A stretch of 64,000 bases of DNA. Origin: Escherichia coli O157:H7 (lineage in GTDB: Bacteria; Pseudomonadota; Gammaproteobacteria; Enterobacterales; Enterobacteriaceae). Position numbers: made by a program. Positions 51,001 through 54,000 of this stretch are shown in pieces (position 1 is the first letter of the stretch; every line of letters begins with the position of its first letter). Location: assembly GCF_013167455.1 (NCBI RefSeq), contig NZ_CP038328.1, one strand, 5' to 3'.

Positions 51001-54000
51001 GTAAAGCCTTTCCTCAGCCGGCAGGTGTTGCGTTACCAGTCCGGGAAGCGGAAACACAGGAAGAAATTAAAACTGAAAGTGTGGCGGTCACAGTGCAGTC
51101 ACAGTCGTCGTTCATCAGAAAGCATCCGGATGGTCTGATTTTACCATCGCTGCATGTGGCTAACCGCGAGCTGCGCCGGGCAAAAGGTCAGGTTCAGAAG
51201 TGGGAGCGCTTATGCGCCGCGCTGCGGGAAATTAATAAGCATCGTGATGTCATACAGAAAATAACGACAGGAGATAACGGGTAATTTTTACAGCAGGGTG
51301 ATGATATGAAAATCAGATATCATGATTTCGGCCCCGTGTCACATATGCTTATTTCAAGTACGGTGCTGGAAACAAGAAAACATAATCACATACTGGATAT
51401 GCTGCGTCTTGCTGACCCGTATCTGGTAATAAACACCAGTGGAATTTTCTTTCTGAGAAGCACTGTGTCAGGAAAAACATCGCATGTGCTTCGGGCATAT
51501 AAAACAGCAGTGCGGGAGGAAGGAGAATGAGCGAGATTAACTATCAGGAGCTGCGTGTTGAGCTGGGAGCAGCAAAAAAACGCATAGAAGAGCTGGAGGC
51601 TAATCGTGTGGTGCTTGAGGTGGAAAATGAGAGGTTGAAACACGCAATGGCCGTAGCCCTTGAGCATATATCCGTCACAGATGCAGGACAGGCAGGTGTC
51701 GCTGCAATGATTATCTATGATGCCATGTACCACAGTGAAAAAACTGACCCCTACGCTTTTCTGGCAGAATTGCGGGCGCAGGGTGTGGAGATGGTGCGCG
51801 AACATCCAGCAATCAAACTTTGCTCTTTGACGCACATATGTGACGAGTTAGTCGCAGAGCTTCGCAAAGGAGGCAACAAGTGAGTAAAACGAATCCGGGC
51901 TGGGCAAGGCCACTTATGGCGAAAAAACATCATTATTTTGCTGAAGGTGAAATAACAAGTATTTGCGGTGGGTGGATGTATTTTGGCAATGAGCGTGAGC
52001 CGGATACATTCGAAAGTCCAGATGATTGTAAAAAGTGTCGTAGAAAATTAAATAAGGGGGGTAAATGAGCGTAATTAAAGAAATGCCAGTGGAACGTAAT
52101 GAATATGGCTGCTGGACGCATCCTGAATATGAAAAATTCTGTGATGGTCGGGAATATATTTCAACGGAAGAGTTTAACGCCTGGATGGAGAAAAATAATC
52201 TTCAGTGGGCTATCCGTAGTATGGATGAAGATGATTTTAATCTGGACGCAGATGGCCCTGATATTTCAGCATGGGAACCTGAGCGACCAGAAGGTGAGGG
52301 ATGGTTTATCGGTTCGATACATGACACCGAAGATGGTCCTGTTTGTGTATGGCTGAGAAATAAGGCCGAAGCATAAAGGCTATAAACCAACAACTAAACA
52401 CTGAAAATTTAAATCAGAAATGATTTTTATTAAATCCTTAACCGGAGGGATTCCTGCACCCTCAGAACATCAGGAGACCGCCCGAAAGGGCGGTAGTGAA
52501 AAATGACTGAATTAACCAAAGAATGGCTACAGAACACGATTACCGGAATTGAGTCATCACGGGATGAAATACCGTTCGGACTCGATGAAGATCAAAACAA
52601 CATGCTTACCGCATTAAAAATTGCACTGGCATCACTGGCATCAGTATCGGATGAACGGGCAGCCTATGAATTATTTATGGAGAAGCGTTTCGGGGAATCT
52701 GTAGATCGCCGCAGAGCAAAAAATGGCGATAGAGAATACATGGCATGGGATATGGCGCTTGGCTGGATTATCTGGTGTCACCGCGCCGCCATGCTTCAGG
52801 CTGGAAACTTTCGGGAAAATAAGGGTTCGTCAACCAATAATTTTCGGATAATCTCGGAAACGTCAACCAACTCTCCGGCAATCCCTGATGAGGTGTTGTC
52901 CGCAATCCTGAAGGTCGCCAGGCTTCGTGCAGATTTCGATGCTTCTGAAGTGGACAGGCGAGGTATCGGTAGTTGTCTGGATGAGGCCGAGCAAGAACTT
53001 ATCGTTACCATTAACGAATACGCCAGTCAGATCGCAGTAGAAGCGACACAGGGGGAGAACCAATGAGCCGGCCAGATGCATTTGCAGGCGTTGCTATAGC
53101 TATTGCTTTTCTAGTATATGTTATTTGTCGGTGGGGGTAAAAACGTTCGCCGGGATTCACACCAAGGGAGGGAATATGTCGGATGATATTTCACTGGTAA
53201 TGGAAGGCGCTCTGGCTGTTATTGCTGTTGTGGGTGTTTACTGCCTGGTTGTGTTTTTGATGGAGCGCCTGGGGAACTGAATTCATTCCGTATGGGAATT
53301 CCCATATCGGGCAAAACGGTTTGCTGTAAAGCGAGAGTTAAGTAGAATTGCTGCGGGTGCTTGAGGCTGTCTGCCTCGGGCATGCCACCGTAAGGCAGAC
53401 AGAGAAAAGCCCCAGTTAACATTACGCGTCCTGCAAGACGCTTAACATTAATCTGAGGCCCAATCTATGCTTCACAAACGTAGGTTAGCCTCTTACGCGC
53501 CGAAAGGCAAGGAGAAGCAGGTTATGAAGCAGCAAAAGGCGATGTTAATCGCCCTGATCGTCATCTGTTTAACCGTCATAGTGACGGCACTGGTAACGAG
53601 GAAAGACCTCTGCGAGGTACGAATCCGAACCGGCCAGACGGAGGTCGCTGTCTTCACAGCTTACGAACCTGAGGAGTAAGAGACCAGGCGGGGGAGAAAT
53701 CCCTCGCCACCGCTGATGTGTCAGGCATCCTCAACGCACCCGCACTTAACCCGCTTCGGCGGGTTTTGTTTTTTCTGGTCGTTCTGGTTTACAATCCATC
53801 CGTCAGCCTGAACAACTGGCACCTGCTGCGCCAGCAGAGAAAACAGATGGCGCACGATACCAAATTTTACAATTCGGATAACTCTGCCGCCCCTGCCAGC
53901 AGGCACGGGCGGCGTTCTCATGCATTCAAATCTGACTGGTATCAGCACGACCCCTGCACCGAAGAACAGGCTGAATGGCTGATTCAGTGTTACCGCAGGC

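Follow-up and report, generated by a model that had tools for sequence, protein, structure and literature searches.

We analysed a 64,000-nucleotide (nt) stretch of Escherichia coli O157:H7 (RefSeq assembly GCF_013167455.1, contig NZ_CP038328.1; henceforth the window), which represents a prophage with a Rac-type layout, and followed up five small open reading frames (ORF1 to ORF5) at 51306-53066. The block consists of five separate accessory genes that assort independently, each forming a family of its own, and it is not one system. In our assessment it is probably a cassette of non-essential early accessory genes of a Rac-like lambdoid prophage, whose products are likely host-directed binding modules. 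Judged by sequence relationships, the block is by ancestry an ea/exo-xis-type accessory cassette set in the rightward operon and not a nin module, because the relatives of its genes sit in the early-left operon of most other phages and the genes do not travel together. A preliminary description of the window had assigned the block to a 'nin-like region'. That label fits its map position between the replication genes and Q, but not its ancestry.

Independent assortment was apparent at several levels of divergence. In the 18 viral contigs that carry an identical ORF1, ORF1 to ORF3 are 100% identical, the DUF1627/YdaW-like gene adjoining the block upstream falls to 64% identity, ORF4 falls to 85%, and ORF5 is replaced. 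A further 62 viral loci encode an ORF1 homolog with 44-54% identity and have none of the other block genes; there the homolog lies 2-3 kb from the contig end. The ORF1 family (349 related viral-contig loci; ratio of nonsynonymous to synonymous substitution rates, dN/dS, 0.09-0.2) also has members close to xis/int, at a distance of a few genes, in Fels-1, TL-2011c and Klebsiella phages. We rejected the idea that the DUF1627 gene and ORF1 form a fixed pair, as they are paired in TL-2011c and not in Fels-1, phi467, Klebsiella phi8.3 or the 62 viral loci. Overall, relatives of the block genes occur mostly in the int-proximal early-left 'ea/exo-xis' region of other phages.

The regions that resemble the block most are the exo-xis region in lambda and Stx phages (Ea22, Ea8.5, orf60a, orf61, orf63) and the ea region of P22 (Ead, EaA). 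They likewise hold small, non-essential, very early and highly mosaic genes, and it is there that relatives of ORF1, ORF2, ORF4 and ORF5 are located in other phages, annotated as Ea22, Eae, EaA or DUF551. The O157 genes differ in their place: they follow the replication genes, within the rightward operon. The five ORFs also have no detectable similarity to the five lambda exo-xis proteins: pairwise comparisons with these and with lambda Ral, Gam, Kil and CIII gave only noise. The O157 set was assembled by recombination from the ea/exo-xis-type gene pool of lambdoid and P22-like phages.

We compared the block with the corresponding slot of related prophages. Rac-SA53 has the flanks in common with the O157 prophage (dicA/dicC-type immunity, ydaT, ydaU, ydaV and ydaW on the left; hok and Q on the right), and its rac22 is an 80% homolog of ORF4. 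Its slot after ydaW, however, carries lygF, rac19, ead, rac21 and rac22, and only rac22 matches the O157 block. In K-12 Rac the slot is deleted and only a truncated ydaW is left, which ruled out a K-12 counterpart of the block. A 100% identical copy of the 2-kb block region is found in each of 343 complete E. coli genomes, and 1202 of 5426 have parts of the region. These 343 copies come from near-clonal O157-type prophages and so provide no independent evidence of linkage. As a separate observation, the IMG/VR contig 2713896799_000022 (L172, positions 1-5285) holds a variant of the same slot, in the order ORF1-like gene (42%), methyltransferase-like 162-amino-acid (aa) gene, four-Cys 84-aa protein, ORF4 (83%), 101-aa coiled-coil gene, 277-aa ORF5-like gene, 34-aa peptide gene, hok, DUF968 and RusA. 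The same type of methyltransferase gene lies directly 5' of an ORF4 homolog in a Providencia phage (L095).

The five ORFs are all on the plus strand. ORF1 (51306-51530) encodes a basic 74-aa protein of phrog_1001 (isoelectric point, pI, 9.6). ORF2 (51527-51883) encodes 118 aa, with an N-terminal coiled coil and a C-terminal domain. ORF3 (51880-52068) encodes a basic 62-aa protein with invariant H18, C29, C50 and C53, ORF4 (52065-52376) an acidic 103-aa protein (pI 4.2) of a large unnamed alpha/beta domain family, and ORF5 (52503-53066) an acidic 187-aa mosaic protein. ORF3 is read from a GTG and the others start with ATG. Overlaps of 4 nt between start and stop codons (ATGA, GTGA and ATGA) join ORF1 to ORF4, and strong Shine-Dalgarno sequences accompany ORF2 (GGAGGAAGGAGA), ORF3 (AAGGAGG) and ORF4 (AAGGGGGG). 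The five lengths, the start/stop coupling of the first four ORFs and the exact coordinates given in the preliminary description were all recovered, and the gene neighbourhood bore out its placement of the block between the replication and Q/lysis-control modules.

We assessed whether the ORFs are coding. Every one of the five matches a PHROG family (E 1e-24 to 4e-55), all of these families being of unknown function, and the median dN/dS against diverged homologs is 0.20 for ORF1, 0.27 for ORF2, 0.09 for ORF4 and 0.54 for ORF5. Because of these matches and values, and because ORF3 is conserved at the protein level out to virulent phages, the five are real coding genes and not chance ORFs. ORF1, ORF2 and ORF4 are under purifying selection. 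We treated a 149-aa minus-strand ORF (51386-51835) as a shadow of the overlapping ORF1/ORF2: homology and signs of selection belong to the plus-strand frames. The arrangement of the block is operon-like. Consensus scans returned promoter-like and terminator-like sites within the block no more often than expected by chance, and the first good terminator is at 53748-53765, 3' of hok. The block would be transcribed within the rightward early operon, with no convincing promoter or terminator between the replication genes and the block.

Two of the proteins are themselves mosaic. ORF2 matches phrog_492 (E 7e-24) and phrog_368 (E 4e-19), and its residues 5-45 give coiled-coil-type matches. Against Pfam Ead_Ea22 (PF13935) it scores 18.1 bits (cutoff 27, E 0.004) over profile positions 75-138 only, and its tblastn matches are partial or segmental, within genes named ead/Ea22-like or Eae. 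ORF2 opens directly in the coiled coil, lacking the N-terminal segment of Ead/Ea22, and homologs align from residue 7-65 onward. It thus has the coiled coil and the variable C-terminal domain of Ead/Ea22 proteins, but neither their N-terminal segment nor their exo-xis location, and on this sequence comparison we classify it as a truncated Ead/Ea22-like coiled-coil protein with a variable C-terminal domain. In published Ea22 variants, a shared N-terminal segment and coiled coil are followed by portable C-terminal domains that are unrelated to one another, DUF551 being among them (PMC10834534); the segmental composition of ORF2 and ORF5 fits this architecture.

In ORF5, residues 1-100 correspond to the N-terminal part of DUF551/EaA-type proteins, and residues 94-187 form a different C-terminal module (phrog_14306). 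Relatives that have residues 1-100 (79-94% identical) are 244-250 aa long and end in DUF551 (E 1e-21), a domain also known from E. coli CPS-53 YfdS and Ea22 variant V2, whereas ORF5 itself has no Pfam match to DUF551 (PF04448) at E ≤ 0.1, its C-terminal half being the phrog_14306 module. Its PHROG matches are arranged by segment; residues 1-100, 39-134, 39-151 and 93-187 are common to different relatives, with recombination points at about residues 39, 100, 134 and 151. For residues 39-134 (52617-52904), dN/dS is 0.5-0.8 against homologs with 88-90% identity, much above the values for the other block genes, which indicates relaxed or diversifying selection on ORF5. A gene for a 34-aa hydrophobic peptide (53176-53280, plus strand), the sixth 'hypothetical' coding sequence of RefSeq here, has a strong Shine-Dalgarno sequence and lies directly 5' of hok/sok. 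It is 85-100% conserved 3' of ORF5-like genes and travels with them.

ORF4 and ORF5 are separated by a 126-bp spacer that is conserved as much as the flanking genes or more. Its 3' part is a conserved 70-nt leader (52433-52502, plus strand) in which hairpin 1 (52445-52463, 5 bp) is followed by AGGAG (52472-52476), a GAAA-tetraloop hairpin 2 (52477-52494, 7 bp), 8 nt and the ATG at 52503. Folding z-scores relative to shuffled sequences are -2.5 to -3.0, and no Rfam family matched the leader or any other part of the block. Copies of the leader occur at 1432 places in 758 complete E. coli genomes (14% of complete genomes; median 2 per genome), with almost no annotated feature under them among the records listed; 19 phage records and no fewer than 120 viral contigs have it too. 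We selected 119 instances by hairpin 1 alone. Hairpin 2 was found in 101 of the 119, with AGGAG directly 5' of it in 94 of these 101; a start codon follows 5-10 nt 3' of hairpin 2 in 94 of the 101, at 5-8 nt in 90 of them. The ORFs downstream belong to at least eight unrelated families. Helix positions are 98.4% paired with one compensatory CG-to-AU change, although the shuffle control was not significant because the sequences are too similar, and several changes are wobble-compatible only in plus-strand RNA.

Our best reading of these features is that the leader would serve as a hairpin-bridged ('split') ribosome-binding site and as a conserved linker at mosaic joints. In the split ribosome-binding sites of T4 genes 38 and 25, a hairpin brings a spacing of 22 nt down to 5 nt in one case and of 27 nt down to 11 nt in the other (PMC3014915). 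In the ORF5 leader, similarly, over 20 nt separate the Shine-Dalgarno sequence from the start codon, and an intervening hairpin would restore a spacing of 5-11 nt: AGGAG lies 26 nt before the ATG, and the 18-nt hairpin would cut this to 8 nt. It differs from the T4 sites in having no sequence relation to them and in serving at least eight unrelated genes with several copies per genome. A repressing role of the hairpin is an alternative, since in the minimum-free-energy fold the Shine-Dalgarno AGGA is base-paired to a UCCU upstream of it. As a linker, this unannotated leader, itself a useful by-product of the analysis, may explain why mosaic joints fall exactly at gene boundaries. The spacer also holds an AT-rich inverted repeat, CTGAAAATTTAAATCAG, at 52401-52417, followed by a T-rich run, and similar palindromes (CTGAAT-N6-ATTCAG) lie ahead of the leader in other contexts. 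Candidate roles of the repeat are those of operator, weak terminator and promoter region.

RefSeq begins ORF3 (WP_001414276.1, 50 aa) at the ATG at 51916, 12 codons downstream of the GTG at 51880. Alignments of 11 and 18 homologs, including those of virulent phages, have invariant residues G7, W8, P11, H18, F20, S27, C29, C50 and C53. Because G7, W8 and P11 lie upstream of the RefSeq ATG and AAGGAGG stands ahead of the GTG, the RefSeq start is probably too late and the 62-aa form is probably correct. The corrected start is a useful by-product, as the gene is mis-annotated in hundreds of RefSeq genomes. The protein-level homologs in virulent phages (Sf11 gp34, Bas99, Bas100 and 611R5) lie amid DNA polymerase, nuclease and helicase genes.

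The His-Cys-Cys-Cys set of ORF3 probably binds zinc, judging from its invariance. The preliminary description had called one of the five proteins zinc-ribbon-like; the four conserved putative ligands of ORF3 agree with this, but its predicted structure is a small barrel plus a helix and lacks the two CxxC knuckles on beta hairpins of a three-stranded ribbon. We also rejected ORF3 as a Lar-like zinc ribbon (PF14354), since there was no Pfam match, hhalign against the ORF4-fused Lar domains gave 1.6% probability, and the model disagrees. The protein is basic with a lysine/arginine-rich helix, and so nucleic-acid binding is a reasonable guess.

ORF4 is the most widely distributed of the five. A search of a library of 1.84 billion proteins returned 599 cluster representatives at E ≤ 1e-3, that is, about 600 clusters at 50% identity. 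Some members stand alone and are about 100 aa long, and others form part of a longer protein; the family has the motifs PVxRDxxGxWxHP and WxPxxPxGxGWFxxSIHDTEDGP. It is spread over phages that infect many Proteobacteria, among them Burkholderia, Yersinia, Klebsiella, Vibrio and Pseudomonas. We found no Pfam domain, source name or solved fold relative for this family. In the structural model (predicted local distance difference test score, pLDDT, 81.6), two helices and three strands make up an alpha/beta domain, and an acidic loop is poorly ordered. This large unnamed domain family, a second by-product of the analysis, deserves a family model and a structure.

The neighbours and fusion partners of the ORF4 domain are diverse. 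Close homologs have at least five kinds of upstream neighbour (an ORF3-type gene, a gene for the unrelated 84-aa four-Cys protein of rac21 type, an acidic 74-aa protein, a small membrane protein and an ORF1-type gene), in a locus search with a narrow ORF4 alignment that returned close relatives only. In mEp460_4F5 the homolog lies in the leftward early operon. Among 52 long members scanned, the domain is fused to Lar in three, to an Rv2179c-like exonuclease in two and to a Tad2-like domain in one, with RdgC, KTSC and DHH/DHHA1 as further partners, and one metagenomic protein joins it to the C-module of ORF5. We rejected a general pairing of ORF3 and ORF4 as zinc partners, given the five kinds of upstream neighbour and the rarity of extensions with two Cys motifs (2 of the 38 at the N-terminus, 3 of the 42 at the C-terminus). 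The commonest partner is a module of about 100 aa without a Pfam match, with the motifs EGW..HD..H..GEL, WPW, WKP and RR, seen in P0215, P0156, P0166, P0202, P0204, P0211, P0224, P0259 and P0268.

We searched for known functions of all five proteins. Neither Pfam nor NCBIfam contained a family matched at its curated threshold, or a curated enzyme family, for any of the ORFs, the sole weak match being that of ORF2 to Ead_Ea22. PADLOC defence-system models gave no match at E ≤ 0.1, and sequence and profile searches of the Protein Data Bank yielded noise only. The Pfam, NCBIfam and PADLOC scans uphold the earlier statement that none of the five has a recognisable function. RefSeq labels all five genes and the 34-aa gene 'hypothetical protein'. 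A literature search by RefSeq accession found nothing, and a search by the name 'Rac-SA53' found nothing relevant.

From these features we propose how the cassette might act. ORF1 to ORF4 would be translationally coupled, and expression of ORF5 would depend on the conserved structured leader ahead of it. In character the proteins resemble small binding modules and not enzymes: ORF2 would oligomerise through its coiled coil and carry an exchangeable C-terminal domain, ORF3 would be a basic and probably zinc-stabilised mini-domain, ORF4 a widespread acidic alpha/beta domain, and ORF5 a constant N-terminal region with a swappable C-terminal domain. Soon after induction, each would bind to a protein or nucleic acid of the host or the phage. 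By analogy with lambda Ea22, the exo-xis genes and yfdQRST, they might thereby tune the replication of host DNA, the cell cycle or the choice between lysis and lysogeny. Ea22 favours lysogeny (PMC7093339), and exo-xis genes change lysogenisation and induction (PMC3824215). Over-expression of CPS-53 yfdQRST, in which YfdS carries DUF551, inhibits initiation at oriC, and YfdR binds DnaA (PMC4776307).

Several points weigh against this proposal. The mechanism of host modulation is drawn by analogy with neighbouring gene types, and transcription of the block from pR is read from the DNA. ORF2 falls under the Pfam threshold and has no pairwise similarity to lambda Ea22. The AT-rich conserved spacer and leader could provide ORF5 with a promoter or regulation of its own. 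The few fusions of the ORF4 domain to Lar, Tad2-like, phosphodiesterase and exonuclease domains lean faintly towards counter-defence, although they are rare and may reflect merely adjacency in accessory regions. The block is a correct but ordinary observation that adds members to the known mosaic accessory genes of lambdoid phages. O157:H7 carries many lambdoid prophages whose small early genes are largely 'dark matter'; as a shuffled ea/exo-xis-type set, neither a nin module nor a defence island, the block is one whose genes are to be considered one by one.

We weighed the possibility that the block is an anti-defence cassette, in which ORF4 (with or without ORF3) or the fast-evolving ORF5 would most plausibly block restriction or abortive infection early in the lytic cycle, and regard it as unlikely while still deserving attention. 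In lambda, the next gene after P is ren, which confers resistance to Rex exclusion. The O157 block takes this map position directly after the replication genes, and the DUF1627 protein is weakly Ren-like in PHROG, but none of the five ORFs resembles Ren. Anti-defence is also favoured by the fusions of the ORF4 domain to Lar (three proteins) and to Tad2-like, DHH/DHHA1, Rv2179c-like exonuclease and RdgC domains in some proteins, by the methyltransferase-like gene that adjoins ORF4 homologs in the E. coli variant block and the Providencia phage, by the very acidic ORF4 product and by the raised dN/dS of ORF5. However, the fusions are rare in a family of about 600 clusters (Lar in three and Tad2-like in one of the 52 long proteins) and may be adjacency only, zinc-type partners are not general, and ORF3 is unrelated to Lar. 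Within Pfam-A and the annotated PHROGs, none of the five ORFs matched an anti-restriction, anti-CRISPR, other counter-defence or host-takeover family, and none was a PADLOC defence protein; the anti-defence or host-takeover role suggested in the preliminary description found no support there and is kept only at this low weight.

More doubtful still is a specific version centred on ORF4. The ORF4 domain would then constitute a new and widespread phage module for neutralising a host factor of nucleic-acid-targeting defence or repair, often working in E. coli phages with a small zinc-binding partner that is encoded upstream (ORF3 or rac21 type) or fused (Lar type), and the ORF5-type leader would be a portable linker for expression and recombination in the exchange of modules.

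The remaining explanations fare worse. A single co-functioning five-gene system, such as a prophage defence or toxin-antitoxin-like operon with mutually needed parts, would agree with the tight start/stop coupling of four genes, with the whole block being identical in 343 genomes and with the metagenomic fusion of the ORF4 domain to the ORF5 C-module. We consider it very improbable: the identical copies are near-clonal, there is no PADLOC match, and the genes occur apart in most relatives, so that independent assortment largely refutes it. We give equally little credence to decaying or non-functional filler, with ORFs kept only through the youth of the prophage. The prophage is defective, its integrase cut short by an insertion sequence (IS) element and its terB a pseudogene, and constraint on ORF5 appears relaxed, but dN/dS is well under 1 for ORF1, ORF2 and ORF4, conservation of the families extends across genera and to virulent phages, and reading frames and ribosome-binding sites are intact. 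Ordinary Nin-region housekeeping proteins diverged past easy recognition, the reading that the preliminary description had set against its own, would suit the map position between P and Q and are hardly credible, as no Pfam Nin family matched at E ≤ 0.1, phmmer and blastp comparisons of the five ORFs with lambda Ren and NinB-NinI gave only noise (bit scores ≤ 3.6), and relatives lie in the early-left operon of other phages.

The five-gene cassette is embedded in a Rac-type gene order. To its left are, in order, the IS-disrupted integrase, a RecE-like exonuclease, DicB, a LexA-type repressor, Cro, YdaT, a DnaT-like O, P and the DUF1627 (YdaW-like) gene. The last of these (50586-51284, plus strand; RefSeq start used, the longest ORF running from 50520) matches Pfam DUF1627 (E 7e-79) and PHROG 630, with a weak match to the Ren-like phrog_142. 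Its product is 58% identical to K-12 Rac YdaW and holds winged-helix regions, one of them weakly Ren-like. To the right follow the 34-aa peptide gene, hok/sok, DUF968, RusA, Q and three tRNAs. The hok/sok type I toxin-antitoxin locus (53355-53679, plus strand) marks the right boundary of the block and is recognised by Rfam (sok, 114.9 bits), RefSeq (hokD) and NCBIfam (Hok family).

Further observations concern the rest of the window, in which repeated mobile DNA is abundant. Four identical ALIL pseudoknots (IS3-family frameshift signals) occur at 10991, 22582, 31426 and 60522, and four tRNA matches of identical score at 20024, 23745, 25566 and 41262, outside the prophage tRNA trio at 56445-56691. 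A match to the small RNA (sRNA) STnc100 lies at 57465-57637, 3' of Q and the tRNAs. A 2026 preprint describes the prophage sRNAs PasA and PasC as syntenic with RusA, TerB and DUF1627; because all three are present here, the window may contain a Pas sRNA. A weak isrK-like Rfam match (27 bits, gathering score 50) at 53688-53769 overlaps the terminator-like hairpin at 53748-53765 downstream of hok.

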